A stretch of DNA of 64,000 nucleotides from Actinomycetota bacterium. Its GTDB lineage: Bacteria > Actinomycetota > Actinomycetes > Nanopelagicales > Nanopelagicaceae. How positions within the stretch are numbered: position 1 is the first letter of the stretch; every line of letters starts with the position of its first letter. The translations under genes were made by a program, and so were the position numbers. Under the pieces are notes generated by a model. The model saw only the letters and a program-made list of their open reading frames with translations, made no database searches and was not told the DNA's origin. Positions 6,028-48,207 of the stretch are shown here, one piece after another. The stretch covers positions 653 to 64,652 of the forward strand of contig CANBVR010000001.1 of NCBI GenBank assembly GCA_947372965.1, given 5' to 3'.

Positions 6028-6031
6028 CCCA

Positions 6032-6871: not shown

Positions 6872-7290
6872 CCCTTCGGATTTTGCAACGAGATGTAGAT
6901 GCAATTGTTGCTCAATCGAGAGCCGAGTACCCAGATGAGTGTTGCGGGGTAATACTTGGTCCGATTGGCTCCGATCTAGCAAACCGCCTAAAGCCGATGG
7001 TTAACGCTGCACATTCACCAACTTTTTATGAGTTTGACTCAAAAGATTTACTGGCGCTTTATCGCGAGGCTGATGAAAATGACGAAGAGTTAGTAGTCAT
7101 TTATCACTCTCATACAGAGACCGAGGCTTATCCATCTAGGACTGACATTGCTTATGCCTCTGAACCAAATGCCCATTACGTCTTAGTCTCTACACGCAAA
7201 GAACTTGCATCTAGCTATGAATTGCGCTCGTACCGAATTATCGATGGGGAAGTTACTGAAGAACCGGTTGAAATTCTTCTCGATTGGTAA
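6868..7290 (+). CDS. mec: JAMM/MPN+ metalloprotease Mec (CysO-processing)
   Basis: JAMM motif HSHTETEAYPSRTD, with upstream ECCG and E residues. The ATG at 6868 overlaps the stop of the upstream gene (ATGA). It sits immediately upstream of cysO-cysM. Confidence 0.85.
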   Translation: MTLRILQRDVDAIVAQSRAEYPDECCGVILGPIGSDLANRLKPMVNAAHSPTFYEFDSKDLLALYREADENDEELVVIYHSHTETEAYPSRTDIAYASEPNAHYVLVSTRKELASSYELRSYRIIDGEVTEEPVEILLDW

Positions 7291-7319
7291 GTATTTACTT
7301 CTTCTAGGATAATAAAGCC

Positions 7320-8560
<1,241 letters not shown>

Positions 8561-11728: not shown

Positions 11729-13483
11729 TCAACCGAGAGCTTCTAAAATGGCAGCAACATAAACGTTGCTGCCATTTTCATTTAAATGCACGCCATCTGG
11801 TGCAAAGAATTCTGGATGATTTGATGAAATTTCCTGCCAATTTACTAAGGTTGTTTGCGGGTAGATTTTAATTACATCATCAATGATTTTGTTATTTTGA
11901 TCTTTCCAGGCCCGTGGGACTGAGGTATTTACCAAAATAATTCGCGGTTGATTCTTTAAAAGATCCAGCAATTTGATCAAATCATCACGAACGATTGTAT
12001 TGTTATTTCCTACGTCAAGCACAACGATTGAATCTGGAACCAAGTGTTGGTCGGCTTTAACTACATCTATAAGCTCCGCAAGTTGGCGGCCAACCCGGGC
12101 GTTAACTAGAGCGAGAGCCTTCTTACTAGCTAATTTATTCTTGATTCCGAGAATTACCGAATCTCCAGTCAGCCAAATTCCTTTGCTCGAGGCGGAAATA
12201 ACTGGTGCATCAATTTTCGTATCTTGCTTGATTACTACTACTTCGTGATAATTTCTATGCCAGGCCGTTGCACCAGAAGCCAAGGAAACTGCAGATACGA
12301 GAGAGATGCAGACCGCAACAAAGATTCGTTGTCGCCTTTGAATAACTTTTCCTCGGTATTTAATGCCGCGAAGCCAAGTTTGAACGACACCGCGACGAAT
12401 CGGAACTTCGAGATACCGGAGTGAAATATCTGCCAGGGCAAGTACTAGGAGAATTCGAGCTAAATCAAGAGCAATCGCCGAACCGGCCGCAAGGTCCACT
12501 GAGGGTCTTGTTACTTGGAAAACAACCCAGTGCCAAAGATAAATTCCATATGATCGGCGACCAATCCACAGCAATACCTTTGAACTTAGGATTGGCGCAA
12601 AACGCGATGCTGGATGCACCAAGGAGATAATTGTTGCGCAGCCAAACACTCCTGCCAGCGGAAAGGCTGCGCGGTACATGGCTGCGTTGCTCTCATTAAT
12701 GAAGAGAAAAGATGTGAGTAAACCAAATAGTCCGAACATTCCAATTCCATCAATAAAATCTTGCGCTCTCTGGGAGATCTCGGCTGTTAGATTTCTTGGA
12801 ATCCAACTAACTGCTAATGCTGATCCCAAAAATAAACCTAGACTGTGGGTATCAGAACCAAAGTAGATATGGCTAATGCGTCCAGAATTTGTGCTCTCTA
12901 CCCGAAGTGAAAAAAGGAAAAGGGAAACTCCAGATAAAAGTGCGATTAAAAGCGCCGCTCTGGCCACACTCTTTTTGCCATATTTACGCCAAATAAAATA
13001 TAAAACAAAGGGCCAGACGGCGTAAAATTGTGCTTCAACAGCTAATGACCAAGTGTGTTGCAGAAGTGGCGGCCTACCTGACGTGGCGAAGTAATCCTGG
13101 TGAAGTGAAACCAAGTGCCAGTTGTTTGTGCCAGTCAGAACAAAAGGCATATCAGAGAAAATTCTTTTGATTGAATCTGGTGCAACACTTGCCGAAATTA
13201 CTAGGGTTCCAATTACAACTGCGATTAGCCCAGGATATAGACGGCGAACTCTGGCCCAATAAAATTCCCGAAGATCAAGGCCATTAATACTTTCAATTGA
13301 ATCCAGAATTAATCGGGTAATTACATATCCAGAAATTACAAAGAAGAGATCTACTCCAAGAAAGCCACCAGGAATCCACTTGACTCCCAAGTGAAAGAGT
13401 AGGACGGCGGAAACTGCTATCGCTCGCAGTCCATCGATTGGTGGAATGTAACTCGATGTATTTTTGGAACGTTTTGAAGTCAT
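11729..13483 (-). CDS. acyltransferase-3 family membrane O-acyltransferase fused to a C-terminal SGNH/GDSL domain (OatA/OafA-like)
   Basis: 584 aa. The N-terminus IDGLRAIAVSAVLLFH is followed by about 10 TM segments. The C-terminal domain carries WLTGDSVILG (block I) and APDGVHLNENG (block V). Confidence 0.8.
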   Translation of the reverse strand: MTSKRSKNTSSYIPPIDGLRAIAVSAVLLFHLGVKWIPGGFLGVDLFFVISGYVITRLILDSIESINGLDLREFYWARVRRLYPGLIAVVIGTLVISASVAPDSIKRIFSDMPFVLTGTNNWHLVSLHQDYFATSGRPPLLQHTWSLAVEAQFYAVWPFVLYFIWRKYGKKSVARAALLIALLSGVSLFLFSLRVESTNSGRISHIYFGSDTHSLGLFLGSALAVSWIPRNLTAEISQRAQDFIDGIGMFGLFGLLTSFLFINESNAAMYRAAFPLAGVFGCATIISLVHPASRFAPILSSKVLLWIGRRSYGIYLWHWVVFQVTRPSVDLAAGSAIALDLARILLVLALADISLRYLEVPIRRGVVQTWLRGIKYRGKVIQRRQRIFVAVCISLVSAVSLASGATAWHRNYHEVVVIKQDTKIDAPVISASSKGIWLTGDSVILGIKNKLASKKALALVNARVGRQLAELIDVVKADQHLVPDSIVVLDVGNNNTIVRDDLIKLLDLLKNQPRIILVNTSVPRAWKDQNNKIIDDVIKIYPQTTLVNWQEISSNHPEFFAPDGVHLNENGSNVYVAAILEALG

Positions 13484-33105: not shown

Positions 33106-33705
33106 ATGGAGCTGATTGCAAAAGAGCCTAAATCCAAGGTTTCAAGGACCCGTTTGCAAAGGCAAATTAGGACCGCGATGTTTATTTTTGCGCTTTCACT
33201 AATTATAGTTTTTTTCGCCTTGGTAACTTTATTCAATTCTTCGAATCAAAATTCAACTTGGCGCACAAAGGCGCTGAGTGCCCAGATAGCACTAAATCAA
33301 GGACAATTGGAAACTTTGGTTAAATCCGAGAAGTTGACGGTTTTTTGGGCTGGCCCAAAAGTTAACTCTTTATATACGTTAGATGCCTCAAGCTCTGATC
33401 GCACAGTAATTAGATATGTCGAAGTTAATCATTCAAAAACATCCGTATTAGGGTCGAGCCGTCAGATAGCAACTTATAAATCAGAAAACGCCTATTCCGA
33501 TGGAATTATTGCAGCATCAAGCGCGGGAAATATTGGTTTTCGAAATCCAGATGGGGCGATCGTTTTTTATGCGGCTAATCGACTCTCAAATGTTTACTTG
33601 GCAATTCCCAAAATTAAATATCAAATTGAAATCTATGACCCCATTAGGGGTCAAGCATTGAGTTTGGCGGCACTCACCGGACAAATAACCAGAATTGGAA
33701 AGTAA
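33106..33705 (+). CDS. hypothetical membrane-anchored protein (N-terminal TM, extracytoplasmic ~150-aa domain)
   Basis: 199 aa. A basic N-terminus is followed by one TM helix ([20 protein letters not shown]). I recognise no family motif. Confidence 0.55.
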
Positions 33706-33706
33706 A

Positions 33707-34855
33707 ATGAGCCTACAAATATCTTCAAAAGCTCTTTTGATCGTAAGTTCAATATCGCTAACGCTTGCTGCTGCAACAGGAAGTTTTGCAGTAACTGAAG
33801 CTACTGGTACGACGCACTTTATTTCCAAAGAGTTGGTGCAAAGCGCTTATGATGGTGCGGTCTGTAAAGTTGGGGCGACAGGAACATCAGGGTCGAATGG
33901 CGAGACAGGAACAACTGGCGCAGTCGGTGCTACCGGCGTAAAAGGAGATTGTGGAGCAACCGGTGCTCCCGGCGCAGATACCAAGTGGAGCGCCGTAAGC
34001 GAAGATATTGTTCCAACGGAGGATAATAAGTTTTCAATCGGCACCTTTGAAAAACGATGGAAATCTTTACAACTTGGTCCCGGCACGCTTTATATTCAAG
34101 ATAAAGTTACCGGAAATCAAGCTGGCTTAACGGTTAATGCCGGCACACTTTTACTAGATGGAGCTGACTCACTTCGTATTGGAAATATTCAATTTACAAG
34201 TACTGGACTTAAATCGACGCTTACCGATCAGGATATTACGATTGGTGCACTTGGTGATCGTGGTTATCTAACTCTTGCGAGAGCACTTAAATTTCCAGAT
34301 GGAACTTCGCAATCGACTGCAATGTTGAATGGATTGACAGGGCCACAAGGAGCTTCCGGTCCACAAGGAGCTTCCGGTCCACAAGGGCCACAGGGAATTC
34401 AAGGTGCTATTGGTTTAACGGGACCACAAGGAATCCCTGGCGTTGCAGTAAATATGAAAGGCTCGTTTGCCACCCTCGCTGCTTTTACATCAGCCGCGCT
34501 TATTGGGGCGCCCGGTGATGCGTGGATTATTGTCGCGAATGGTGCGCTAATGGTTTGGAATACGTTGACCACTTCTTGGGATGATGTTGGACATCTTCAA
34601 GGTCCACAAGGACTGAAAGGCGATACGGGAGCAACTGGCGCACCGGGAGCAACTGGCGCACCGGGAGCGACAGGACCAAAGGGCGAAACAGGAACTGCGG
34701 GAGCAACTGGCCCAGCCGGAACTATTGCCCCTTATGGAAAGCAATATGTTTGCGTTGTACCTTCAGGCACAAAGCGAGTCATGTATTGGGGAACTTGTTC
34801 AAGTCAAGGTCTGACTGGAACTGAGTATTTCATCCTTGCAACCTTCCCATTCTAG
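33707..34855 (+). CDS. secreted collagen-like triple-helix repeat protein with tail-fibre-like non-collagenous domains
   Basis: Signal-peptide-like N-terminus ([28 protein letters not shown]). It carries three uninterrupted G-X-Y runs of 11, 12 and 13 triplets. Intervening segments contain [18 protein letters not shown] and [33 protein letters not shown], patterns I associate with phage tail fibres. The ATG at 33707 follows the upstream stop by 1 nt. Confidence 0.8.
33872..33973 (+). repeat. collagenous G-X-Y run 1 (11 triplets)
   Basis: Encodes [34 protein letters not shown]. Confidence 0.9.
34331..34441 (+). repeat. collagenous G-X-Y run 2 (12 triplets) containing an 18-nt perfect tandem duplication
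   Basis: Encodes [37 protein letters not shown]. At the DNA level, GGTCCACAAGGAGCTTCC is tandemly repeated. Confidence 0.9.
34601..34720 (+). repeat. collagenous G-X-Y run 3 (13 triplets) containing an 18-nt tandem duplication
   Basis: Encodes [40 protein letters not shown]. At the DNA level, GGAGCAACTGGCGCACCG is present twice. Confidence 0.9.
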
Positions 34856-34867
34856 GAAGGTAAATAA

Positions 34868-35722
34868 TTAAGCTTGGTAGTTTTTGAAGTGATTGGTGAT
34901 CTGGCCAATTCCATCAATGCCGGTCACAACAGTCTCGCCACCTTTTAGATATTTGGTTGGCTTGAAGCCCATACCAACACCTTGCGGGGTACCAGTGTTG
35001 ATGATATCGCCGGCGCAAAGTTCCATAACCTGGGAGATATACCAAACGCAGTAAGAGATATCAAAGATCATGTCATTGGTATTTGAATCTTGACGAGTCT
35101 CACCATCTACGGTGCACCAGACGCGAAGATTTTCTGGGTTTGGCATCTCATCTGTAGTCACAATCCAAGGACCAACCGGATTAAAGGTTGGGAAAGACTT
35201 TCCCTTTACCCATTGGCCACCACGTTCAACTTGCCAATAGCGTTCAGAGACATCTTGAGAAACCGTGTAACCAAGGATGTAATCCTTAGCCTCTTCTGGT
35301 GACTTTAGATAAAGCGCCTTCTTCTTCATTACGACACAGATCTCAACTTCATAATCCGTCTTCTCTGAATTTGGCGGAACAATTACATCATCATTGCCAC
35401 CAACAACTGTATCTGGCGCCTTCATAAAGATAATTGGTTCTTTTGGTGATTCAGCGCCGGTTTCTGCCGCATGTTGGGCGTAATTAAGACCAACACAAAT
35501 TGCCTTTGTTGGGCGAGCAACTGGTGAACCTAGTCGGTAATCAGAAATCTTTACCCGGGGGCGAGATGAAAGGTCTAGCTTTGCAACCTTCTCGTAGGCA
35601 CCGGCTTCGAGTTCAACGCGGTTCCAATCTGCGATCACATCATCGATAAATACCGCTTCGGTTTCACTAACGATTACAGCCGGCTTCTCGCGGTTAAATT
35701 CACCAAGACGTGCGATGCGCAT
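34868..35722 (-). CDS. fumarylacetoacetate hydrolase (FAH) family enzyme (2-keto-3-deoxy-pentonate dehydratase XylX-like or diketo-acid hydrolase)
   Basis: 284 aa with the FAH-fold C-terminal domain pattern KAICVGLNYAQHAAE, DYEVEICVVM, GKSFPTFNPVGPW and GDIINTGTPQGVG. Confidence 0.75.
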   Translation of the reverse strand: MRIARLGEFNREKPAVIVSETEAVFIDDVIADWNRVELEAGAYEKVAKLDLSSRPRVKISDYRLGSPVARPTKAICVGLNYAQHAAETGAESPKEPIIFMKAPDTVVGGNDDVIVPPNSEKTDYEVEICVVMKKKALYLKSPEEAKDYILGYTVSQDVSERYWQVERGGQWVKGKSFPTFNPVGPWIVTTDEMPNPENLRVWCTVDGETRQDSNTNDMIFDISYCVWYISQVMELCAGDIINTGTPQGVGMGFKPTKYLKGGETVVTGIDGIGQITNHFKNYQA

Positions 35723-35799: not shown

Positions 35800-37545
35800 T
35801 TGAGAGATTGGAAATCCGTGAGCGAGAAGGAATATGCCCGCCGAAGTGAAAATTGGTTTAAGGCAGAAGGCAAGCACGGATATATCTATCGCGAACGTTT
35901 TCGTAATATGGGCTTTGGCTCCGAAGTTTTCTCAGATAAACCTGTAATTGGAATTGCCACAACTTGGTCAGAGCTAAATCCTTGCAATGCCCACCTAGAT
36001 CGCGTTGCCGAAGCGGTTAAGCGCGGAGTCTGGGAAGCGGGCGGTTTTCCACTCGAATTTCCTACGATGTCACTTGGCGAGCCAGTGCAACGTCCAACCA
36101 CAATGCTCTGGCGCAACTTGCTTGCGATGGAGACCGAAGAGTTAATTCGTTCTAATCCTTTAGATGGCGTAATTCTTCTTGCAGGTTGCGATAAGACACC
36201 ACCGGGAATGTTGATGGGCGCAGCATCTGTCGATCTACCTACTTTGATGATCACTGGCGGACCGATGTTAAACGGTCGCTACAAAGGTGAAACCCTAGGT
36301 TCTGGAACTGCCGTTTGGAAATACTCTGAACAAATTCGCGCCGGCAAATTAAGTATTGAAGAGTTCTTCCAGATGGAATCTTGCTCTGCTCGTTCAAATG
36401 GTTCATGTATGACGATGGGAACTGCCTCAACTATGGCTTGCGTGACCGAAGCCCTTGGCGTTCAACTCCCAGGCTCTGCTGCAATCCCTGCCGTGGATGC
36501 TCGCCGATTCTCAACTTCACAAGAAGCCGGCCGTCGTATTGTTCAAATGGTTTATGACGATCAGAAACTCTCAACAGTTCTAACTCGCGAAGCTTTCGAA
36601 AATGCTATCAAAGTAAATGCTGCAATCGGTGGTTCTACGAATGCGGTAGTTCATCTACTTGCAATCGCCGGACGAATCGGTGTTGATCTTGAACTAGATG
36701 ATTTCGATCGCCTAGCCCGCGAAGTACCAGTACTCGTTAACTTGATGCCATCTGGAAAGTATTTGATGGAAGAGTTCTTTGATGCCGGTGGCCTTCCTGC
36801 TGTTATGAAGGAGATCGAAGGCATGCTCCACACCGAGCACATCACGGTTTCTGGAAAGAGCGTTAAGGAAAATATTAAAGAAGCTGAATCCTGGAATAAG
36901 GATGTAATTACACCTGCATCGGCGCCATTCCAAAAGGCCGGTTCTGGAATTGTTGTACTCAAGGGATCACTTGCACCAGATGGTTGTGTTTTAAAGGTTT
37001 CCGCCGCAACCCCAGAGTTGATGGTTCACACCGGACCAGCTTTAGTATTTGAAGAGATTGAAGATTATTTAATTGCCTCTGAAGATATGAATCTTCCAGT
37101 TACTAAAGATACGGTACTAGTTCTTAAGCATGCTGGTCCTCGTGGATTCCCAGGATTTCCAGAAGTTGGAAATATGCCAATCCCGCGCAAACTTCTCGAA
37201 CAGGGAATTACCGACATGGTTCGCATCTCTGATGCACGTATGTCAGGTACTGCTTACGGAACTGTTCTATTACATACATCTCCTGAAGCCGCAGTCGGTG
37301 GACCACTTGCACTTGCTAGAACTGGCGACATGATCGAACTCAATGTGCCAAATCGTTCAATTAATATCTTGGTCTCAGAAGAAGAGATGGCAAAGCGCAA
37401 AGCTGAGTGGAAAGCACCAGAACCTAAATACACACGTGGCTGGGGTAAGTTGTATTACGAGACTGTCGAGCAAGCCCACCTTGGTGCAGATTTAGATTTC
37501 CTTCGTGGCTCATCCGGCAGCTACATTCCACGCCACTCGCATTAA
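35800..37545 (+). CDS. IlvD/Edd-family sugar-acid dehydratase (pentonate/hexonate dehydratase-like) copy 1
   Basis: 581 aa with PVIGIATTWSELNPCNAHL, LLAGCDKTPPGMLMG (Fe-S Cys), SCSARSNGSCMTMGTASTM and ISDARMSGTAYGT. The start is uncertain (TTG at 35800 or GTG at 35818). Confidence 0.8.
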   Translation: MRDWKSVSEKEYARRSENWFKAEGKHGYIYRERFRNMGFGSEVFSDKPVIGIATTWSELNPCNAHLDRVAEAVKRGVWEAGGFPLEFPTMSLGEPVQRPTTMLWRNLLAMETEELIRSNPLDGVILLAGCDKTPPGMLMGAASVDLPTLMITGGPMLNGRYKGETLGSGTAVWKYSEQIRAGKLSIEEFFQMESCSARSNGSCMTMGTASTMACVTEALGVQLPGSAAIPAVDARRFSTSQEAGRRIVQMVYDDQKLSTVLTREAFENAIKVNAAIGGSTNAVVHLLAIAGRIGVDLELDDFDRLAREVPVLVNLMPSGKYLMEEFFDAGGLPAVMKEIEGMLHTEHITVSGKSVKENIKEAESWNKDVITPASAPFQKAGSGIVVLKGSLAPDGCVLKVSAATPELMVHTGPALVFEEIEDYLIASEDMNLPVTKDTVLVLKHAGPRGFPGFPEVGNMPIPRKLLEQGITDMVRISDARMSGTAYGTVLLHTSPEAAVGGPLALARTGDMIELNVPNRSINILVSEEEMAKRKAEWKAPEPKYTRGWGKLYYETVEQAHLGADLDFLRGSSGSYIPRHSH

Positions 37546-37557
37546 GTAACGGAGAAA

Positions 37558-38796
37558 TCAAAACGGCTTAGCAAACTCCGTTTGTTCAATCGCTTCTAGT
37601 TCCAATAAGCGATTCCACTTTGCGGTGCGATCTGCGCCGTGGGTCGAGCCAACCTTTATTTGTTCTGCGCGCCAGCCGGTAGCCAAATCTGCGAGCCAAG
37701 AATCTTCGGTCTCACCGCTTCGAGCGCTTACGACGGTTCGAAATCCTGCTGCTTGTGCGGTCTGCAATACATGGTGAGTATCAGTAACTAACCCATTTTG
37801 ATTGGCTTTAATCAGAATCGCATTGGCCGAGCTTTCGGCAATTCCACGATCCAAGCGGGTGTGGTTGGTTGTAAACAAATCGTCACCAAGTATCTGCAAA
37901 GAATCAGGAACTTGAGAAGTGAACTCGGCCCAGGCGGCCCAATCATCTTCAGCTAGGGGATCTTCAATCGAAATGATCGGATGTTCATTTACTAGTTTTG
38001 CCATGAAGGAAACGAATTGGGAAGAAGTGAATTCTCTTCCGATAGTTGGTAGTGAGTACTTTCCATTTTCAAAAAATTGAGTTGAAGCAATATCTAGCGC
38101 CAGGCTTACTTGTGAGCCAACTTGTAGACCTACTTCTTCGATGGAATTGGTGACAAATTCGCAAGCAGCATCGATAGATGTAAAGGCAAGGCCGAGGCCA
38201 CCTTCATCAGCAATTAAGTGTGCTGGACCAATTTTGGCACCACGTTTTGCCGCATTCTCGCGAATAGCCCTTACCCACGTTATTGCTTCATTAAAAGAGC
38301 TTGCCCCATTTGGAAGTACCAAGATATCTTGAATATCCATAGTGCGATTTGCATGTGCGCCGCCAGAGAGAATGTTCACCATTGGCATTGGAATTAAGAG
38401 TGGACCTTTTGGCTGAAATAGTCGCGCCATGGAAATTCCTTTTGCACCAGCGCTTGCTTTGGTCACGGCCAGTGAAACTGCAAGTGTGGCATTTGCTCCG
38501 AGAACGTGATGATCACTAGAGGGATCTAATTTCTTGAGTATTTCATCGGCGTGGGTCAGATCGCACTCGGCGCCTATTAACTTGGGGGCTATAACTTCGT
38601 TTATATTCTTACAAGCTTGCAATACGCCCAGACCATCTTGATCACGAAGTTCTTTTGCTTCATGCGCGCCTGTAGATGCGCCAGAGGGAACTCTAGCGGT
38701 ATGCACTTGTCCATCAACCAAAGTTATTGTTACGGCAACCGTTGGACGACCGCGCGAATCTAGAACTTGATAGCCAATTAAATTATCGATGATCAT
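37558..38796 (-). CDS. enolase-family paralogue (divergent phosphopyruvate-hydratase-like)
   Basis: 412 aa with VLDSRGRPTV, PSGASTGAHEA, SGGAHA, ADEGG, LALDIAS, SIEDP, LGDDL, LIKANQ, SARSGETED and QIKVG. The metal ligands and both catalytic Lys are present. The canonical QEF Glu reads QDI, and the canonical SHRSGETED His reads Ala (codon at 37723-37725, GCT). Confidence 0.75.
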   Translation of the reverse strand: MIIDNLIGYQVLDSRGRPTVAVTITLVDGQVHTARVPSGASTGAHEAKELRDQDGLGVLQACKNINEVIAPKLIGAECDLTHADEILKKLDPSSDHHVLGANATLAVSLAVTKASAGAKGISMARLFQPKGPLLIPMPMVNILSGGAHANRTMDIQDILVLPNGASSFNEAITWVRAIRENAAKRGAKIGPAHLIADEGGLGLAFTSIDAACEFVTNSIEEVGLQVGSQVSLALDIASTQFFENGKYSLPTIGREFTSSQFVSFMAKLVNEHPIISIEDPLAEDDWAAWAEFTSQVPDSLQILGDDLFTTNHTRLDRGIAESSANAILIKANQNGLVTDTHHVLQTAQAAGFRTVVSARSGETEDSWLADLATGWRAEQIKVGSTHGADRTAKWNRLLELEAIEQTEFAKPF

Positions 38797-39767
38797 GCAA
38801 ATAACTCCTCAAAAGCAATATTTTCATTTGAAAGTGCCGTAGCGCTCAGTGCCAAAACTCGAGCTTGTCCGGCTTCATCTAAGTAATTAACCAATGAAAC
38901 CCCCTCAACTCGCGCCCGTGCAATTAGTGCCACATGCTGCGCCAGGCTTGGAGCGATTTCTAAGTTGGAATCTCTGGCATAAGAATCTCTAAAGTTGATA
39001 GCGGTATCACGAATCTTGCTTCGGACAAGTGGGTCGGAAGTTCGCAAGAATTTACAGAGCAGATGTGCGCTTACAAATGCGAGATCAAATACTGGATTTC
39101 CGGTATGGGCGACCTCAAAATCCAAAACTATTGGCTTGTGCTCGGCTGTTATCAAAATATTCTTAGGGGAGAAGTCTCCGTGAACCAGAGTTAACTTAAC
39201 AGTTGTGACCTCTTCGATTAACTTCGCTATTGAAGCAGCTAGCCCGGGATTCTTTCTTGCAACCGAGCGATAAAAGGGAGTTACGCGCAATTGCTCGAAG
39301 AGTGAGTCCTCGGAGTAATCACTGCGCACTTGAGAATTTGTGGCGCCAAAGTTATGCCAAGTAGCCAATATTTCACCTAGGTCGGCGCCAATGCTTGGAT
39401 GAATTACTCCATCTAGTAAATCAAGCTTCCAATTGGTGCATGAATCTGGAAGCCGAGACATGGTCAATGTAAATGTGTCGGCATCTAAATCGATTAGCTC
39501 TGGAACACTTTGTGGAGTTAGGGAATGCAAGAGTTTCATCGCATTGGCTTCAACGATCGCACGTCTTTGATCAGCTTTCCAAACTGAAGCCACCTTCAGC
39601 TCTGGAAGGGCTTGCTTTACAACCAAACTCTTTTCCGGAGTACGCACTGCAAGAACTACACAAGAGACGCCACCGGTTAGCACTTCAACTTGGGCGTCAC
39701 CAGTTATTAAACCTCGTGAATTTAAATAACCAACAACCGAACCTTCATCCAGTAGTTCTTGGCTCAT
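38793..39767 (-). CDS. MtnK-like / APH-fold small-molecule kinase
   Basis: 324 aa with VVKQALPELKVASVWKADQRRAIVEANAM (resembling the methylthioribose-kinase N-lobe), LVHGDFSPKNIL (catalytic loop) and VLDFEVAHTGNPVFDLA. Its stop overlaps the enolase-paralogue start (ATGA). Confidence 0.7.
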   Translation of the reverse strand: MSQELLDEGSVVGYLNSRGLITGDAQVEVLTGGVSCVVLAVRTPEKSLVVKQALPELKVASVWKADQRRAIVEANAMKLLHSLTPQSVPELIDLDADTFTLTMSRLPDSCTNWKLDLLDGVIHPSIGADLGEILATWHNFGATNSQVRSDYSEDSLFEQLRVTPFYRSVARKNPGLAASIAKLIEEVTTVKLTLVHGDFSPKNILITAEHKPIVLDFEVAHTGNPVFDLAFVSAHLLCKFLRTSDPLVRSKIRDTAINFRDSYARDSNLEIAPSLAQHVALIARARVEGVSLVNYLDEAGQARVLALSATALSNENIAFEELFA

Positions 39768-39787
39768 ATCAAGTTTTTACTTACTTA

Positions 39788-40474
39788 TCAGATGGTGCGG
39801 GCGATAGAAAAGCCGCGATCAACAAAGATACTCTGGCCAGAAATTCCGGTATTGATATCAGTGCCGAGCATAAAGATGGCGTTAGCAACATCTTCTGGTG
39901 TTGGAAGTTTTCCGGTTGGGGTTTGATCCAAAACATTTTTGATCTGTTCTGGCTTTAAGGTCCGCGCAACCATTGGGCTATTTACGATTCCTGGCAATAC
40001 GCCATTTACCAAAATTCCCTTTGCTCTTCCAAGATCAACTGCAAGAGAACGAACCAAGCCACCCACGGCAGCCTTGGTTACTGAGTAAGCAAACTTTTCT
40101 TGGCGAGTAAGTTGTTCCCAGAGGGAAGAGATAATTACAACTCGGCCACCTTCGGCGATTAAGTCATGAGCCATAAGCGCAGAGATGGTGTTGGCAATAA
40201 AAGCCACATTTGCTTCAAAGAGTTTTGCTAAGTCTTCTGGCGAACCATCCATAACTGAACCGTTTACATTATCGCCTTGGGCAAAAACAATTGATTCAAA
40301 TTTCTTTCCAGCCAATTTAGGATCGAGTGCGCCCTTTGTAAGGGGCAACAAGACATCGCAGTCATTTACAACTTTGCGAACGCCGCAGATTGAATCCCAA
40401 CCTTCGGCTTTGTATTTCTTCTCAGTTGCTCCACCTAAGGTTCCAGTTGCACCAAAAATTAATAGATTCGGCAT
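39788..40474 (-). CDS. short-chain dehydrogenase/reductase (SDR)
   Basis: 228 aa with IFGATGTLGGA and the YSVTKAA (YxxxK) catalytic motif. Confidence 0.75.
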   Translation of the reverse strand: MPNLLIFGATGTLGGATEKKYKAEGWDSICGVRKVVNDCDVLLPLTKGALDPKLAGKKFESIVFAQGDNVNGSVMDGSPEDLAKLFEANVAFIANTISALMAHDLIAEGGRVVIISSLWEQLTRQEKFAYSVTKAAVGGLVRSLAVDLGRAKGILVNGVLPGIVNSPMVARTLKPEQIKNVLDQTPTGKLPTPEDVANAIFMLGTDINTGISGQSIFVDRGFSIARTI

Positions 40475-41397
40475 TACTTCTCGAAACCATAACGCGTAAG
40501 CATTGAGTGGCCAATTGATGCCCGACGAACTCGCTCGCGCGCTGTTGCTTCGATCATGCCTTGAATATGGCCACCAGCTGGGTACAAACCAGGGGAGTTT
40601 CGAACAGTGAACTTGAGATAGATCGGTGAAGAAACACGAACTAGATCTGGCACTTCGTAGTGGCGAACCGCGCCACCAAAATCATCTGGCGCTTCAACAT
40701 AAACATCAACTGGAATATCAACTTGTGCGCGAATTGCCGCAATTTGTTGGAGTGAAAGATCTGTTGAAAGGTTAAGAGTTGAGGCACCTAGATCTTCATA
40801 TAACTTTGCGGTTGCTGGGTTATTGCAGGTAAGAGCAACTGAAGTCTTGAGGATGAAATCACCAGGTAGATCGCCATTTTTGCGCGCCTTGCCAAGGACA
40901 TCTAATAAACCAGCATCGCCAACCAGTACCGAACGAAGGCCAAGGTCTGCTGCATGTAATACATCCTCAACGGCATAACGAAGTTGATCGCCACCGCGAA
41001 GTGATGGATAAGCAACTGCGCCTGATGCTGACACTGGAGTCTTACCGATATCCCATGAAGCACGTGGGCCAACGAATAAACAGACCTCAATATTCTCGCT
41101 CTTGCCCATTGCGATCATCTCTTTAATTTCATCATCGGTCTGCAACATAATTCCGGAGCCTTGTGAGATGCGGTGGATTGTAAGTTTGCGCTTCTTGGCT
41201 TCATCTAAAACGGCTTTAAAAGCAGCGGGACCTTCAACGGAAGGAATTTCGATCTTCCAGCGAGCGCCATCTGAAAATCGCTTTTCTGACTCTGGTAAGC
41301 CATCTGCATCTTGTGATTGGACGCCTTGCTTACCAAGAAGTGCTATCGATTTCTTCATCGGACCTTGGGCATCGCGAGTTGATGGCCAGTTGCTCAT
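40474..41397 (-). CDS. hypothetical protein, unknown family (possibly alpha/beta-barrel-like)
   Basis: 307-aa soluble protein with no motif I can name. Its stop overlaps the SDR start (TAATG), and it lies 23 nt downstream of the lactonase gene. Confidence 0.5.
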   Translation of the reverse strand: MSNWPSTRDAQGPMKKSIALLGKQGVQSQDADGLPESEKRFSDGARWKIEIPSVEGPAAFKAVLDEAKKRKLTIHRISQGSGIMLQTDDEIKEMIAMGKSENIEVCLFVGPRASWDIGKTPVSASGAVAYPSLRGGDQLRYAVEDVLHAADLGLRSVLVGDAGLLDVLGKARKNGDLPGDFILKTSVALTCNNPATAKLYEDLGASTLNLSTDLSLQQIAAIRAQVDIPVDVYVEAPDDFGGAVRHYEVPDLVRVSSPIYLKFTVRNSPGLYPAGGHIQGMIEATARERVRRASIGHSMLTRYGFEK

Positions 41398-41420
41398 TTA
41401 TTTATCTCGTTTCTATTTAT

Positions 41421-42302
41421 TTACTTAATTGGAAAAAGGACAGGTGCTAGGCCACCAACTTTTGGTCGGTAGCTAAAGGTCTTACCCCAGTCTTTGCCAG
41501 GATTTTCTACGCCATCATGTGCAGAAGTGATGATCAAAGTTCCAAGATCTTTACCAACGAAGGCGCAAGAAGTTGGCATTGGGACGCCGACTTCGAGCTC
41601 TTGGGTTAAATTGAAATCTTTATCGAAGTGACGAAGGACCCCACCGCTCCAGAATGCGACCCAGACGCCATCTTCGGCATCCATACATAAGCCATCTGGT
41701 AGCCCTTGTGAATCATCGGTCACCCGCCAGCGAACTTTTCGGTTTGAAACTTCGCCGTTGATGTAATCAAAGGTATCGATCGACTTTGCCATGGTGTCGA
41801 CGTAAACCATCGTCTTGCCATCTTTCGTCCAACCTAAACCGTTGGAAAGTGAGATGCCATCGACCATCTTCTTAATAGAAAGGTCATCTTTACTCATTCG
41901 ATAGAGACCACATGCGTTTGGATGCGCTGCCCAGTCATAAGGCATTGATCCCAGCCACAGATGTCCATCCGGTGCAACCTTGGCATCATTCCAACGTTCT
42001 GGGAAAGAATCTGCTTTGCCATTTGCATCTGGGCGAGTTTGTAATTTGGTGATCACACCTTCTTTCGTGCGGCGGATCGGACCATTGGCTGTACCCAAGA
42101 TGTGGCTGTAATCGGTACACGGAATTACAAATGAAACATGCTCGTTGGTTTCATAACCGTTGATCTCGCCCGTCTCAAAATTCTTGAAGTAGACCTTGCT
42201 GTTGTAGATATCGACCCACCAGATCCATTCATTATTCGGACCGATAGCTACTGGACCTTCGCCAACCTGACAGGCCCGGTCATCCCAAATCTCAAGAGTC
42301 AT
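41421..42302 (-). CDS. SMP-30/gluconolactonase/LRE-family sugar lactonase
   Basis: 293 aa with beta-propeller-like repeats: CQVGEGPVA, NDAKVAPDGHLWLG, SNGLGWT, PDGLCMDAEDGVWVAFW. Confidence 0.8.
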   Translation of the reverse strand: MTLEIWDDRACQVGEGPVAIGPNNEWIWWVDIYNSKVYFKNFETGEINGYETNEHVSFVIPCTDYSHILGTANGPIRRTKEGVITKLQTRPDANGKADSFPERWNDAKVAPDGHLWLGSMPYDWAAHPNACGLYRMSKDDLSIKKMVDGISLSNGLGWTKDGKTMVYVDTMAKSIDTFDYINGEVSNRKVRWRVTDDSQGLPDGLCMDAEDGVWVAFWSGGVLRHFDKDFNLTQELEVGVPMPTSCAFVGKDLGTLIITSAHDGVENPGKDWGKTFSYRPKVGGLAPVLFPIK

Positions 42303-42337
42303 ACTCGGACTATAAAGGATTGACCCCCTCCGCTACT

Positions 42338-43114
42338 ATGGTTCACATGAGTGAAGTTGACCTTACGAGTTTTAGTAACCAAAACGTTATCGTTACCGGC
42401 GCCGCAAGTGGCATTGGAAAATCTGCCGCAATCTTGCTCGCGGACAGAGGCGCAAATGTGATCGCCTTGGATATGAATGAGGCGGGGCTAAAAGAGACGG
42501 TCGCAACTATCACCGCAGCTGGTGGCAAAGCCACTTACAAGCAATTAGATATTTCAAAGCAGGATGCGGTGCTCTCTTGCGTCGCTGCGATTCAAAAAGA
42601 GGTAGGCCAGGTTCATGCGCTCGCAAACTCTGCTGGAATTTCTGGCAAAACCGGCATCATGGCCGAAAACGTTGAGTGGGCTGATTTCATTCGCGCAATC
42701 GAAATTAATCTTTACGGTGCTATTTGGTTAACCCAGGCACTTCTTCCGGCAATGAAAGAAGCAAAGTACGGTCGAATTGTTCACTTGGCATCAATCGCTG
42801 GAAAAGAAGGCAATCCAGGAATGTCTCCTTACAACACTGCAAAGGCCGGGCTGATTGGATTTGTTAAAGGCGTAGCAAAGGAAGCTGCAACATTTGGCAT
42901 CACCATCAACGCCATTGCACCTGCAGTTATTCGCACGCCTATTAATGCAACAGTGGCAAAAGAAGTTCAGGATTATATGGTTAGCAAGATTCCAGTTGGC
43001 CGTCTTGGCGAGCCAGAAGAGGTTGCTGAGTTAATCGCCTTTGCCGCTTCAAAGGCCTGTTCATTCACAACCGGATTCACCTTTGATATATCCGGTGGTC
43101 GCGCAACTTACTAG
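42338..43114 (+). CDS. SDR (FabG-like sugar/sugar-acid dehydrogenase)
   Basis: VIVTGAASGIGKS, NSAGI and the YNTAKAG catalytic motif. The start is uncertain (TTG at 42320, ATG at 42338 or 42347). Confidence 0.75.
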   Translation: MVHMSEVDLTSFSNQNVIVTGAASGIGKSAAILLADRGANVIALDMNEAGLKETVATITAAGGKATYKQLDISKQDAVLSCVAAIQKEVGQVHALANSAGISGKTGIMAENVEWADFIRAIEINLYGAIWLTQALLPAMKEAKYGRIVHLASIAGKEGNPGMSPYNTAKAGLIGFVKGVAKEAATFGITINAIAPAVIRTPINATVAKEVQDYMVSKIPVGRLGEPEEVAELIAFAASKACSFTTGFTFDISGGRATY

Positions 43115-43126
43115 TTGTAAAAATTA

Positions 43127-44062
43127 ATGGCTGATCTATTTACCTTCGGTGAGGCGATGGCCTTGTTTATGTCAACCGACACCGATTCGGTAAAGACCGC
43201 ACGAAACTATGCGATGTCAGCCGCTGGCGCAGAAGGAAATGTTGCTGTTGCCGCTCATCGACTTGGCCTAGATGTTTATTACCAAACAAAACTCGGTAAA
43301 GATTTTCTTGGCGATAACGTCCTTGCTCAATTTAAGGCTGAAGGCTTGGAAACCAGCCACTTCTTGCGAAGCGATAACTACACCGGAACGCTGGTTAGAA
43401 ATCGTGGCCAAGAAGAACCACTTGATGTTACATACCTGCGTAAATGTGCCGCTGCCTCAACTTTTCAACCATCAGATATTGATGAAGAAGTTCTCAAGAA
43501 TTCGAGATGGCTCCATGTCTCGGGAATTACCGTTGCCCTCTCTGATTCTGCGCGAGATACCGTGGCGCATGCCTTAGAAATTGGGCGTAAACATAATTTG
43601 CGAATCAGCTTTGATTTAAATATCCGCCGCAAATTGTGGAGCGAAGAGAAAGCCTCGAACACCCTTCGGGAGTTGGCGCATGACCTTGAATTATTAACAG
43701 GCGGCGTGGATGAATATGAATTGGTATTTGGTACTAAAGATCCAGAAGAGAATTTTAAAATTGCCGCAAGCAAAGGTATTAAGACTTTGATTATGACTGC
43801 TGGACCTGGGTTGATGAGAATTATGCACAACGGCAAGCGCTTTGATTTCCAACCTGAGGTCGTAAAGATTGTTGATCCAGTTGGTTCTGGCGATGCCTTT
43901 ATCTCCGGAACCATTTGCGGATTATTAGCGGGGCTAGAACTAGTTGATGCCATAAAACAGGGAAGCAAATGCGGTGCAATTGTCGCGAGTACGATGGGGG
44001 ACTGGGCCGGAATGGTTAATGGAGTTGGCGGTCTTCTGCCAAAAGAAGTTTGGGGAGAATAA
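43127..44062 (+). CDS. kdgK: 2-dehydro-3-deoxygluconokinase-like PfkB sugar-acid kinase
   Basis: 311-aa PfkB family protein with DPVGSGDAFISG. It is immediately followed by the eda-type aldolase gene. Confidence 0.7.
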   Translation: MADLFTFGEAMALFMSTDTDSVKTARNYAMSAAGAEGNVAVAAHRLGLDVYYQTKLGKDFLGDNVLAQFKAEGLETSHFLRSDNYTGTLVRNRGQEEPLDVTYLRKCAAASTFQPSDIDEEVLKNSRWLHVSGITVALSDSARDTVAHALEIGRKHNLRISFDLNIRRKLWSEEKASNTLRELAHDLELLTGGVDEYELVFGTKDPEENFKIAASKGIKTLIMTAGPGLMRIMHNGKRFDFQPEVVKIVDPVGSGDAFISGTICGLLAGLELVDAIKQGSKCGAIVASTMGDWAGMVNGVGGLLPKEVWGE

Positions 44063-44671
44063 ATGAGCGCATCAGTTAATTTTGATTCGGGGCTGGTTGC
44101 CATCATCCGCACCAAGACCACCGAAGAAGGTCGAACCTTTGCCAAAGCTCTCGTTGAAGCTGGCGTGGATTTAATCGAGTTCACCACGACTACTCCGGGC
44201 GTCTTTGATTTGATTGAAGAATTTGCCGGTGACTCCCGTACTCAAGTTGGGCTTGGAACTGCAATGAATAAGAAGCATGTTGCAAATGGAAAAAAAGCGG
44301 GCGCAAAGTTTGTAATCTCACCACATACTTCAAAAGAAGTTATTCGAGTAACTAAGAAAGCCAATCTAATTTCTATCCCTGGCGTTGCCACTCCTACAGA
44401 AGTTGCCGATGCTCTTCGACATGGCGCAGATATGCTCAAATTCTTTCCAGCATCCTCACTTGGACCAAATTATTTGAAATCTGTCCGTGATCCATTCCCA
44501 GGTCAAACTTGGTTTGCCACTGGTGGAATTACCGTAGATTCCATTGACTCATGGGTAAAGGCCGGATGCTCTGGTTTTGGTTTAGGTGGACCACTTACAA
44601 ATAGTGGGCTAGATCAGATCGCTAATCGCGTGGCAGAATTTAGAAAGGCAATCGGGGAGGCTCGCAAGTGA
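44063..44671 (+). CDS. eda: KDPG/KHG (Eda-type) class I aldolase
   Basis: 202 aa with VAIIRT, IEFTTTTPG, ISPH and Schiff-base Lys context LKFFPASSLG. Confidence 0.8.
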   Translation: MSASVNFDSGLVAIIRTKTTEEGRTFAKALVEAGVDLIEFTTTTPGVFDLIEEFAGDSRTQVGLGTAMNKKHVANGKKAGAKFVISPHTSKEVIRVTKKANLISIPGVATPTEVADALRHGADMLKFFPASSLGPNYLKSVRDPFPGQTWFATGGITVDSIDSWVKAGCSGFGLGGPLTNSGLDQIANRVAEFRKAIGEARK

Positions 44672-45426
44672 AGTTAAAAGATCGCCACGTTTATGTAACC
44701 GGCGGAGCTGATGGGATTGGCGCTGCAATAGTTTTAGATGCCGCCGAAGCTGGTTCCAAAGTTTCATTTTGCGATTTAAACGTTGAAAAAGGAAAGGCTT
44801 ACGAGGCTGAATTAAAGAGCCAAGGCCACCGAGCTTTCTTCCACGAAGGCAACGTTGGAAAAACCGAATCAATGCAAATTGTTTTTGCCGCAATCACCAA
44901 AGAGTTCGGCGATGTTTATGGTCTAGTAAATAATGCAGGAAGAAATGCCTACAACGATCCGGTCGAAATGACTGAGGCCGAGTGGGAAGATTTTATGAAC
45001 GTTGATTTCAAAAGCGTCTGGACTAATTCAAAATTAGTTCTTCCAGCTATGCGTAAGAATAAATTTGGTTCAATCGTTAACATCTCTTCCATCCACGCCC
45101 GCATGTCATATATGAATTACTTCCCATATGCCGCAGCCAAGGCAGGAATTATTGGCCTAACTCGTAACCTTTCGTTAGATGAAGCCAAGCATGGAATCCG
45201 CGTGAACTCCGTTCTTCCAGGGTTTACCTTGACGCCCATGGTTGAGGATTACTTTGTTAAGAACCCTGAAAAGCGCGCCGAAGCTCTCTCCGTCCAACCA
45301 ATGGGTCGAATGGCTCAACCTTCAGAAATTGCAAAGGTAGTTACTTTCCTGCTGACAGATGATGCCTCATTTGTTAATGGCGCCGATTGGATTATCGACG
45401 GCGGCTTATCTCAGAGGTTTGCTTAA
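44668..45426 (+). CDS. SDR
   Basis: VTGGADGIGAAI, NNAG and YAAAKAG. The GTG start overlaps the eda stop. Confidence 0.75.
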   Translation: MKLKDRHVYVTGGADGIGAAIVLDAAEAGSKVSFCDLNVEKGKAYEAELKSQGHRAFFHEGNVGKTESMQIVFAAITKEFGDVYGLVNNAGRNAYNDPVEMTEAEWEDFMNVDFKSVWTNSKLVLPAMRKNKFGSIVNISSIHARMSYMNYFPYAAAKAGIIGLTRNLSLDEAKHGIRVNSVLPGFTLTPMVEDYFVKNPEKRAEALSVQPMGRMAQPSEIAKVVTFLLTDDASFVNGADWIIDGGLSQRFA

Positions 45427-46482: not shown

Positions 46483-48207
46483 GTGAGCAAGTTACGCAGC
46501 GATGAGTGGTTCTCGGGAGATGATGAAGTAGCTCTCTCGCACCGCGTAGTGATGGCGGCGATAGGCCAAGAGGTTTTGGCGGATAACACCAAGCCAATTA
46601 TTGGAATAGCAGATTCTTCAAGTGAATTAAATCCTTGCAATTTGCCGCTTAGAAATTTCATCCCGGAATTAAAAAGAGGAATCACCGAAGCTGGTGGAAT
46701 TCCGGTTGTCTTTCCAGTTATGTCTCTTGGCGAAGATTTAATGAAGCCAAGTGCGATGCTTTATCGAAATATGCTCTCTATGGAAGTAGAGGAGTATCTT
46801 CGTTCAAATCCACTAGATGGAGTTGTATTACTTGCTAATTGCGATAAAAGTGTTCCTGGTGCACTTATGGGAGCGATTAGCACCGACTTGCCAACAATCA
46901 TGTTTACCGCAGGAGCTAGGCCGATTGCGCAATTCAAAGGTAAGCGAATTGGAACGGGTACTGATCTATGGCGAACTTGGTCAGATTACCGCGCTAAGAA
47001 AATTTCTGAAAAGGAATGGAAAGAATTTGAAAGCTGTCTAAATTGTGGCCTTGGGGCGTGCAACACAATGGGAACCGCTTCTTCAGTAGCGCTCATGGTG
47101 GAAGCACTTGGAATGTCGCTCCCTGGAACTTCAGTAATCCCAGAGAATGATCCGGCGCGCGTAGTTGCAGCTTTTAATTCGGGCAGAGCGATTGTGGAGA
47201 TGGTGAGGAAAAATCGCACACCAGCCTCAATCATGACCCCCGGCGCTTTTAGAAATGCAATGCGCACTTTGCATGCTTGTGGGGGGTCGACAAATGCAAT
47301 CATCCATCTTCTCGCACTCTCTGGGCGAATTGCGGGTGGGTTATCGATTGATCAGATAAATGATCTTGGTAAAGGAATTGCTGTACTTGCAGATGTCGAG
47401 CCATCTGGTGCACAGATGATTCAAGATTTCAATAGCGCTGGCGGCCTTCCTGCGCTCGTAAGTGAAATTGCAGAGCACTTTGAGTTGTCAGAAAAGACTC
47501 TGACTGGGCAGAGCTGGAAAGAAATTATCATTGGCGCCGAAAGTAAAAACTCTTCAATTCGAAATTCAAAAGATCCAACCTACCCCACAGCCGCCTTTGC
47601 AATTGTCAAAGGATCACTCGCTCCAAATGGCGCAGTTATAAAAGTTTCGGCAGCATCAAACGAGCTTTTAAAGCACACCGGCCCAGCTGTCGTCTTTCAT
47701 GGATATCAAGATATGCGCACCAGAATTGATGATCCAGATTTAGAAATTACAAAAGATAGCGTTTTGGTATTAAAGGATTGTGGTCCAGTGGGAGTTCCTG
47801 GGATGCCAGAGTGGGGGATGATCCCAGTTCCAAAGCGATTATTAGAAGCCGGCGTTTTAGATATGGTCCGAATTTCAGATGCTCGAATGAGCGGAACATC
47901 CTTTGGAACCTGCGTCCTCCATGTGGCACCCGAATCGGCAGTTGGTGGCCCATTGGGATTAGTCCAAGATGGTGATCTAATAGAACTAGACGTTCTTTCC
48001 GGTTCGTTAAATTTATTGGTTTCGGCAGAAGAGTTAACAACTCGAAAGAAAAATTGGACAGCGCCAATTTCTGAACATTTGCGAGGCTGGCCGGCGCTTT
48101 ATCAAAGTCACGTCATGCAAGCAGACCTTGGATGTGACTTAGATTTCCTTCGCCCAAAAAATCAGGCGCAAATGCGCTTCATTCCTCCAGTTGTTGGCCG
48201 TTCTTAA
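46483..48207 (+). CDS. IlvD/Edd-family sugar-acid dehydratase copy 2
   Basis: 574 aa with PIIGIADSSSELNPCN, LLANCDKSVPGALMG, CLNCGLGACNTMGTASS and ISDARMSGTSFGT. GTG start. Confidence 0.8.
   Translation: MSKLRSDEWFSGDDEVALSHRVVMAAIGQEVLADNTKPIIGIADSSSELNPCNLPLRNFIPELKRGITEAGGIPVVFPVMSLGEDLMKPSAMLYRNMLSMEVEEYLRSNPLDGVVLLANCDKSVPGALMGAISTDLPTIMFTAGARPIAQFKGKRIGTGTDLWRTWSDYRAKKISEKEWKEFESCLNCGLGACNTMGTASSVALMVEALGMSLPGTSVIPENDPARVVAAFNSGRAIVEMVRKNRTPASIMTPGAFRNAMRTLHACGGSTNAIIHLLALSGRIAGGLSIDQINDLGKGIAVLADVEPSGAQMIQDFNSAGGLPALVSEIAEHFELSEKTLTGQSWKEIIIGAESKNSSIRNSKDPTYPTAAFAIVKGSLAPNGAVIKVSAASNELLKHTGPAVVFHGYQDMRTRIDDPDLEITKDSVLVLKDCGPVGVPGMPEWGMIPVPKRLLEAGVLDMVRISDARMSGTSFGTCVLHVAPESAVGGPLGLVQDGDLIELDVLSGSLNLLVSAEELTTRKKNWTAPISEHLRGWPALYQSHVMQADLGCDLDFLRPKNQAQMRFIPPVVGRS

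Follow-up and report, generated by a model that had tools for sequence, protein, structure and literature searches.

A kinase and variant-enolase pair in sugar-acid operons of freshwater Nanopelagicales and other bacteria

Non-phosphorylative Entner-Doudoroff (ED)-type routes finish with a glycerate kinase, which yields 2-phosphoglycerate (2-PG), and enolase; the enzymes of this lower branch are a glyceraldehyde dehydrogenase or tartronate-semialdehyde reductase, a glycerate 2-kinase (GarK/GlxK or MOFRL class) and enolase. Here we analyse a five-gene operon (positions 37558-42302, minus strand) in a window of 64,000 nucleotides, the whole stretch of contig CANBVR010000001.1 that was examined, from an acI Nanopelagicales genome (assembly GCA_947372965.1). 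The operon encodes a lactonase, a U32-like protein, a short-chain dehydrogenase/reductase (SDR), a kinase of the APH superfamily and a paralogue of enolase. Its last two genes form a module that would share with the glycerate branch the sequence from hydroxy-acid to 2-phospho-acid to phosphoenolpyruvate (PEP), and that has the same aldolase, aldehyde dehydrogenase and sugar-acid dehydratase neighbours; its kinase, however, is unrelated to the three known glycerate kinase classes, and it brings its own modified enolase. An earlier sequence-only reading of the window, which held that the five genes match no textbook pathway, overstated the case, since the ED-type routes end in just such a kinase and enolase.

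The enolase subgroup is generally regarded as isofunctional. Enolase-type precedents that form or consume PEP on modified 2-phospho-acids are PhpH of phosphinothricin biosynthesis, an enolase homologue serving antibiotic production, and the phosphosulfolactate synthase ComA, "an enolase that is not an enolase", whose fold differs from that of enolase; unlike the pair described here, neither is known to be joined to an APH-family kinase in catabolic operons. A further comparison is the diketo-hydrolase "Route III" for L-fucose, L-rhamnose and pentoses, as described in PMC6336799 and PMC11199699. Its set comprises a sugar dehydrogenase, a lactonase, a dehydratase, a 2-keto-3-deoxy-acid 4-dehydrogenase and an FAH-family hydrolase, and the window and many related loci likewise have SDRs, a lactonase, an IlvD or MR_MLE dehydratase and an FAH hydrolase. 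To our knowledge, described Route III pathways end at pyruvate and lactate or glycolate, whereas here a kinase-enolase pair is inserted beside the hydrolase or fused to it.

The kinase-enolase pair as the fixed core of a modular operon

The kinase gene (38793-39767, 324 aa; Pfam APH) and the enolase paralogue (37558-38796, 412 aa; TIGR01060, Enolase_N and Enolase_C) overlap by 4 nt, the kinase stop and enolase start sharing ATGA. A scan with the kinase alignment, using one GTDB genome per species, returned at least 596 hits, of which the best 80 loci were analysed. Among the 74 of these with enough sequence, tblastn with the window proteins placed a same-strand enolase directly downstream of the kinase in 71; locus L091 has its enolase too, beginning about 0.8 kb downstream of the kinase. 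The 4-nt overlap is maintained in 52 of 63 pairs from different species. Pair loci occur in Nanopelagicales, Acidimicrobiia, Microbacterium, Streptomyces, Terrabacter, Thermoleophilia, Gaiellales, Solirubrobacterales and Dormibacteraeota; three complete genomes in the hit list carry one pair each, and one Acidimicrobiaceae metagenome-assembled genome (MAG) carries two separate pairs (L079 and L082). The kinase and enolase are thus the evolutionarily fixed core of the operon. Recurrence in other genomes had been named beforehand as the test of whether the two act as a pair, and together with the gene fusions described below it bears that proposal out.

Several members of the kinase family are fusion proteins. 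One (P0388) fuses kinase and enolase, and its gene neighbours encode an FAH protein, an MR_MLE dehydratase and a 2-hydroxyacid dehydrogenase. In others the kinase alone is the fusion partner and the enolase follows: of a D-2-hydroxyacid dehydrogenase (P0480, locus L096, with a 4-nt overlap to the enolase), of an FAH hydrolase (P0467, locus L097, with SDRs and a glycoside hydrolase family 2 (GH2) glycosidase nearby), of an FGGY kinase (P0506, in an operon with a DeoC-type aldolase, two zinc-dependent alcohol dehydrogenases (Zn-ADHs) and an aldehyde dehydrogenase) and of a PfkB kinase (P0435). Within acI the pair comes last in operons of three contexts: that of the window (A), with the U32-like gene, SDR, kinase and enolase beside IlvD and FAH genes; a second (B), in which a sugar ABC transporter precedes the kinase and enolase and neither a sugar dehydrogenase nor a lactonase is present; and a third (C), in which an MR_MLE acid-sugar dehydratase precedes them. 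The binding protein of context B, whose gene immediately precedes the pair, matches the Thermus glucose/galactose-binding protein (PDB 2B3B) at E 7e-100.

Outside acI the commonest order is FAH, SDR, kinase, enolase, SDR, and the neighbours include MR_MLE dehydratases, lactonase, aldehyde dehydrogenase, 2-keto-3-deoxy-6-phosphogluconate (KDPG) aldolase and GH2 glycosidase. An FAH hydrolase adjoins the pair in 25 loci and an aldehyde dehydrogenase is present in 26, in L099 within an operon of DeoC aldolase, FGGY kinase, enolase, alcohol dehydrogenase and aldehyde dehydrogenase. The D-2-hydroxyacid dehydrogenase that is fused to the kinase in P0480 is adjacent to the pair elsewhere, and in L046 (5445-7686) an FMN-dependent 2-hydroxyacid dehydrogenase (FMN_dh) and a D-2-hydroxyacid dehydrogenase lie side by side, adjoining the pair. 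The operon of L037 has, in addition to the module, a canonical class I glycerate kinase (Pfam Gly_kinase, 284 bits) encoded 19 nt past the paralogue, and a pyruvate phosphate dikinase (PPDK) gene is near the pair (glycerate kinase/PPDK locus, features at 12248-13396 and 5103-7841). As a separate observation, a locus of Terrabacter terrigena (L093; 12617-14791 and 5432-6448) has an FbiC-like radical-SAM gene, with two Radical_SAM stretches and CofH_C, about 0.3 kb downstream of the pair, a 101-aa open reading frame (ORF) between the two, and a luciferase-like monooxygenase upstream; the arrangement may reflect a tie to PEP-dependent F420 synthesis or be coincidental.

The other three genes of the operon form outer layers around this core. 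Upstream of the kinase lie a short classical SDR (39788-40474, 228 aa; Pfam adh_short_C2 and adh_short), a U32-like TIM-barrel protein (40474-41397, 307 aa; ORF listing and a partial Peptidase_U32 match) and an SMP-30/gluconolactonase-family lactonase (41421-42302, 293 aa; ORF listing and Pfam). Read from the sequence, a 23-nt gap separates the lactonase and U32-like genes, the U32-like stop and SDR start share 1 nt (TAATG), and a 20-nt gap separates SDR and kinase; the strand, positions, gaps and overlaps given in the sequence-only reading are all confirmed. Promoter-like and terminator-like matches within the five-gene block did not rise above shuffled expectation, and the whole cassette is retained in relatives at 70-90% identity. 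Because the same order recurs in related genomes and the kinase-enolase overlap is so widely kept, the packing is not a matter of chance, and these observations together uphold the earlier proposal of co-transcription and translational coupling. Thirty-three loci, all of them acI, have the U32-like gene with the pair, and in 32 of these the 228-aa SDR lies between it and the kinase, whereas the lactonase is directly upstream of it in just 12 of 30 U32-containing loci. The five genes are therefore one real, modular operon with nested conservation rather than a single conserved unit, and the lactonase is a variable, dispensable add-on. It had been proposed that lactonase and SDR form the sugar-oxidising entry of the operon; the patchy presence of the lactonase, and an SDR that is not evidently the sugar dehydrogenase, weaken this.

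A new kinase family and a signature-bearing enolase clade

The kinase matches APH-type Pfam families only (APH, E 4.9e-16). Its best named model is that of 5-methylthioribose kinase (TIGR01767 MTRK, MtnK), which it reaches at 69.5 bits, far below the cutoff of 275, and MtnK in the PDB matches it at just E 8.7e-8. The AlphaFold2 (AF2) model (pLDDT 96) has MtnK as its nearest structures in Foldseek (2pyw, 2pun and 2olc, TMq 0.82-0.85), followed by PsiK. Residues K51, H196-G-D198, N203 and D216-F-E218 (D-x-E) are invariant, and an exhaustive search of 1.84 billion representative sequences gathered 494 clusters (50% identity) at E<1e-30. MtnK and the related 5-deoxyribose kinase DrdK thus share with the kinase the closest fold, the HGD...N catalytic loop and the Mg-binding D-x-E motif, but it is only about 18-20% identical to them, is some 70 residues shorter, and is partnered by an enolase, which needs a carboxylate substrate. 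The kinase belongs to a new family of the APH/MtnK fold. A role in methionine or 5-deoxyribose salvage was dismissed, given the low MtnK score and given that no methionine-salvage genes (mtnA, mtnB and the like) were found among the Pfam-annotated neighbours in L001-L007, L095-L100 or the window. Nor does the kinase fall into the known glycerate kinase classes (class I GarK/GlxK, PF02595; class II MOFRL; class III plant GLYK), and an E. coli GarK query had no match within the window, though it did pick out a separate gene in L037; in function the new kinase may still resemble a glycerate kinase.

The paralogue passes the enolase model TIGR01060 (409.6 bits against a cutoff of 300), has both PF03952 and PF00113, and is 45-50% identical to solved bacterial enolases, with the same two-domain fold. 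Alignment to enolases of the PDB (residues in yeast numbering throughout) revealed two active-site replacements: QEFMI becomes QDILV and SHRSGE becomes SARSGE, that is, Glu168 to Asp and His373 to Ala. Asp168 together with Ala or Gly at 373 was found in 120/120 closest homologues and in 66/66 pair-linked sequences from the genome scan, and also in the copies beside fused kinases; the kinase-enolase fusion has Gly at 373. The Catalytic Site Atlas, as quoted in PMC4922564, counts Glu168 among the catalytic residues of enolase, and His373 lies beside the C3 hydroxyl in the canonical enzyme. Relative to the E. coli, Chloroflexus and Campylobacter enolases, further changes are invariant in the clade (N155S, M170L, G207A, I380L and T394V) or frequent (N162R in 57/66, E251Q in 64/66, and I346N).

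Retained, on the other hand, are the Mg ligands Ser39, Asp246, Glu295 and Asp320, the base Lys345, Lys396, the acid Glu211 and the phosphate-site residues Arg374 and Ser375, in 66/66 pair-linked homologues bar minor exceptions in the Ser39 loop of three non-acI sequences; Gln167 is kept as well. With glycolytic enolase (EC 4.2.1.11) the paralogue hence has in common the two-domain fold, Mg ligands, Ser39 loop, Lys345, Glu211, Lys396 and phosphate Arg/Ser; it differs in Asp168, Ala/Gly373 and the invariant N155S, G207A and T394V, and in lying always directly after, or being fused to, one particular kinase within sugar-acid operons. In our reading of these residues, the paralogue would still bind a 2-phospho-carboxylate, abstract its alpha-proton and expel the C3 leaving group, whilst the pocket round that leaving group appears remodelled toward smaller side chains. 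The enol-phosphate product proposed in the sequence-only reading is therefore reasonable so far as the residues for 2-phospho-carboxylate binding and alpha-proton abstraction go. Distinct specificities in the three acI contexts were considered and dismissed, as the active-site columns are identical among them, and the same residues recur outside acI.

In public collections, identical sequences go by "enolase", "5-methylthioribose kinase" and, for the U32-like protein, "U32 family peptidase" or "hypothetical protein". At least the names given to the kinase and as U32 peptidase are probably wrong and look like over-annotation from the nearest family, and the name "enolase" conceals a distinct clade.

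Candidate reactions of the pair

Most simply, the pair would convert D-glycerate to 2-phospho-D-glycerate and then to PEP, a proposal that we tentatively favour at a little under an even chance; we infer that glycerate is the substrate and PEP the product, and likewise where phosphorylation takes place and which way the reaction runs. In such a scheme a sugar, likely of the L-arabinose, D-galactose or 6-deoxyhexose type, would be oxidised to an aldonate by an SDR and lactonase and dehydrated by an IlvD-type dehydratase, and the 2-keto-3-deoxy acid would be split either through 2-keto-3-deoxygluconate (KDG) kinase and KDPG aldolase or through a 4-dehydrogenase and FAH hydrolase. The fragment released alongside pyruvate would be a C3 2-hydroxy-acid, in the simplest case D-glycerate, which the kinase would phosphorylate at O2, and the paralogue would dehydrate the 2-phospho-acid to PEP, in which form the second half of the sugar would enter central metabolism. 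D-glycerate is the simplest candidate because the partners of the pair make or interconvert small 2-hydroxy-acids and enolase chemistry needs a 3-hydroxyl, and the FAH, aldehyde dehydrogenase and D-2-hydroxyacid dehydrogenase partners and fusions place the kinase substrate after C-C cleavage. Uniform active-site residues among contexts fit one common small intermediate better than sugar-specific substrates, and PEP as product agrees with the PPDK gene that L037 has next to the pair. A galactose theme runs through the loci, with GH2 glycosidases in L089 and L097, the glucose/galactose-type binding protein of context B and an IlvD resembling L-arabinonate dehydratase in the window. Of other small substrates, 2-phospho-lactate and 2-phospho-glycolate were dismissed as neither has a beta-leaving group, and elimination of phosphate from 3-phosphoglycerate was dismissed as the C2-phosphate site is fully kept and ATP would be wasted. 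Should the glycerate proposal hold, the module would work like a glycerate kinase and enolase, although its kinase family is new and its enolase comes from a clade with a residue signature of its own; the kinase would add a fourth class, unrelated to the other three, to the glycerate (hydroxy-acid) kinases, and routes through the FAH diketo-hydrolase would gain a PEP-yielding end for hexoses.

Several points weigh against conversion of D-glycerate. The invariant Asp168, Ala/Gly373, N155S, G207A and T394V would be unexpected for ordinary dehydration of 2-PG, and a streamlined genome of about 1.3 Mb does not obviously need a second, dedicated enolase for ordinary 2-PG. The class I glycerate kinase within the L037 operon suggests that the new kinase is perhaps not a D-glycerate kinase. 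By the FAH route, 6-deoxyhexoses and pentoses yield lactate or glycolate, which an enolase-type enzyme is unable to use. Full-text literature searches, moreover, found no description of the pair.

The enolases with Asp168 and Ala/Gly373 may instead be a widespread clade of divergent function that acts with its dedicated MtnK-fold kinase to turn a 2-hydroxy-acid other than D-glycerate into an energy-rich enol phosphate, which we regard as quite possible but short of probable when all candidates are taken together: L-glycerate, a tetronate, an aldonate, or a C3 acid whose leaving group differs. Small acids (L-glycerate, tetronate) rank highest among these, aldonates lower and sulfolactate lowest. 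For the small acids, the kinase would make a 2-phospho-acid that the housekeeping enolase is unable to use, such as 2-phospho-L-glycerate, 2-phospho-tetronate (erythronate or threonate) or another C3-substituted 3-hydroxy acid, and the paralogue would turn it into PEP or a PEP analogue. The smaller side chains of Asp168 and Ala/Gly373 by the C3-hydroxyl site, with the accompanying N155S, G207A, E251Q, N162R, I346N and T394V, point this way, as do a pair that is retained, coupled and sometimes fused even in streamlined genomes, the canonical glycerate kinase in the L037 operon, and FMN_dh and D-2-hydroxyacid dehydrogenases alongside, which suggest that the stereochemistry of the 2-hydroxy-acid matters. 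Yet the fusion to a D-specific dehydrogenase indicates a D-configured acid such as D-glycerate, no source of a C4 acid is evident in the neighbourhoods, and Asp168 and Glu211 are both acids, so that the chemistry still resembles loss of hydroxide; on balance such a neofunctionalised pair is possible, if on the doubtful side. The sequence-only reading had the kinase make a 2-phospho-aldonate, in which case it would phosphorylate O2 of a C5/C6 aldonate and the paralogue would form a 2-phosphoenol-3-deoxy-aldonate, an ATP-neutral alternative to IlvD- or MR-type sugar-acid dehydratases. An enlarged pocket near C3 would suit this, the nearest structures of the kinase (MtnK and PsiK) bind sugars or molecules of similar size, the fused D-2-hydroxyacid dehydrogenases could be 2-ketoaldonate reductases, and the pair always lies within sugar-acid clusters. 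The idea is nevertheless weakened by active-site residues that stay identical across operons with different sugars and dehydratases (IlvD, MR_MLE or none), and we consider it unlikely: a conventional dehydratase is nearly always adjacent, leaving no gap to fill, the FAH and aldehyde dehydrogenase fusions and partners put the kinase after C-C cleavage, and context B has only a glucose/galactose ABC transporter, with neither sugar dehydrogenase nor lactonase.

A set of SDR, SMP-30 lactonase, IlvD/Edd dehydratase, aldolase and aldehyde dehydrogenase also resembles the sulfo-ED pathway, and the larger C3 pocket and the new Arg162 (57/66 sequences) could accommodate a sulfonate. The kinase would then phosphorylate 3-sulfolactate from a sulfo-sugar route, and the paralogue would form PEP from 2-phospho-3-sulfolactate by loss of sulfite; an enzyme of true enolase fold would in this way run the ComA reaction backwards. 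We hold this to be very improbable, given that neither a sulfoquinovosidase (GH31) nor a sulfite exporter was found in any annotated neighbourhood, that the glycosidases present are GH2 and the binding protein is of glucose/galactose type, that two acidic residues (Asp168, Glu211) would lie beside the putative sulfonate site, and that literature searches found no such route. The last alternative, raised in the sequence-only reading as the mundane outcome, is that the paralogue is simply the glycolytic enolase of the organism and the adjacent kinase functionally unrelated. It has in its favour a score above the NCBI enolase equivalog cutoff and the public name "enolase"; we nonetheless give it almost no credence, as no copy retains Glu168 or His373, coupling to the kinase gene is constant and sometimes goes as far as fusion, the Acidimicrobiaceae MAG has two pairs, and the clade is found in Streptomyces, Microbacterium and Terrabacter, which possess ordinary enolases. 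Within the genome collection the kinase is confined to about 60 of the acI species representatives. The glycolytic Embden-Meyerhof-Parnas pathway, by contrast, is reported from genome analyses of cultured acI/Nanopelagicales isolates for every genus or strain examined (PMC5301498, PMC12817590), which argues against the paralogue being the sole enolase.

Were the substrate indeed an acid other than D-glycerate, the paralogue would be the first enolase-subgroup enzyme in catabolism to act on a new substrate. Actinomycetota, among them the commonest bacteria of fresh water, would then possess a substrate-level route that had gone unrecognised. The question can be tested directly on two soluble enzymes, and a natural fusion protein is at hand. 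Because acI Nanopelagicales dominate the freshwater bacterioplankton and live on algal sugars, an unassigned step in the small acI genomes bears on models of carbon flow.

Upstream genes and the surrounding sugar island

The U32-like protein and the 228-aa SDR presumably prepare the substrate of the kinase. The former matches Peptidase_U32 (PF01136) at 36.6 bits (cutoff 22.4, E 3.8e-9) over profile positions 7-90 of 233 only, scores 18 bits against the TrhP model (cutoff 534) and had no match in a PDB sequence search. Its AF2 model (pLDDT 86) has the eight-fold beta/alpha pattern of a TIM barrel, and the best Foldseek matches, to class II aldolases and the U32 protein Mk0906, are weak (TM about 0.45-0.5). 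The family is highly conserved (mean column identity 75%), and across 38 homologues the two cysteines of the protein are invariant (Cys106) or nearly so (Cys191). U32-type hydroxylases (UbiU/V, TrhP, RlhA) are defined by conserved Cys ligands for a 4Fe-4S cluster; with a partial profile match and no such Cys cluster, roles as peptidase or Fe-S hydroxylase were dismissed. Orthologues of 62-65% identity occur in other oxidative sugar operons that have neither kinase nor enolase, and full-text literature searches turned up no paper on a sugar-pathway role of the protein. In such non-acI metagenome contigs (L008-L013) the orthologue stands in operons of lactonase, dihydrodipicolinate synthase (DHDPS)-type protein, PfkB, KDPG aldolase, MR_MLE, SDR and U32, which continue with a family III CoA-transferase, an enoyl-CoA hydratase, a metallo-beta-lactamase-fold protein and GH88. 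The 228-aa SDR carries GATGTLG and YSVTK motifs and has only generic relatives in the PDB, and the lactonase is a full-length match to Pfam SGL (PF08450; 196.7 bits, profile positions 1-246 of 246).

The operon sits within a sugar and sugar-acid island of about 30 kb. Convergent on the enolase gene is an IlvD/Edd-family sugar-acid dehydratase (35800-37545, plus strand), which scores 850.7 bits against NF009559 (L-arabinonate dehydratase, cutoff 882) and 872.9 bits against NF004784 and is syntenic in 27 related loci. Beyond it lies an FAH-family acylpyruvate (2,4-diketo-3-deoxy-aldonate) hydrolase (34868-35722, minus strand; Pfam FAA_hydrolase, 232 bits), which reaches 264.9 bits against NF053535 (2,4-didehydro-3-deoxy-L-rhamnonate hydrolase), below the cutoff of 500.

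On the lactonase side, a divergent four-gene operon (42320-45426, plus strand), assigned by Pfam and NCBIfam matches, encodes a 264-aa SDR, a KDG/2-keto-3-deoxygalactonate (KDGal) kinase of the PfkB family, a KDPG/KDPGal aldolase and a 252-aa SDR, an arrangement that is syntenic in L001-L007 and L014-L022. Just 17 nt (42303-42319) lie between the start of the lactonase gene (42302) and the TTG at 42320 that was mechanically called as the start of the divergent SDR; the true start of this SDR probably lies further in, for instance at in-frame Met codons a few residues downstream. Further out is a second IlvD/Edd dehydratase (46483-48207), and the remaining genes of this side of the island (42320-63177) encode a Zn-ADH, two CUT1 ABC transporters, an NAD-epimerase, a DHDPS-type aldolase, an RraA-like protein, a xylose-isomerase-like TIM barrel, a KGPDC/HUMPS-family decarboxylase, a dienelactone-hydrolase-like protein and the glucuronate isomerase UxaC. 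Just outside the island, on the plus strand, a gene for a 199-aa protein whose N-terminal segment is hydrophobic and which matches no Pfam family (33106-33705) precedes one for a 386-aa protein with collagen-like G-x-y repeats (33695-34855; Pfam Collagen, E 9.6e-21).

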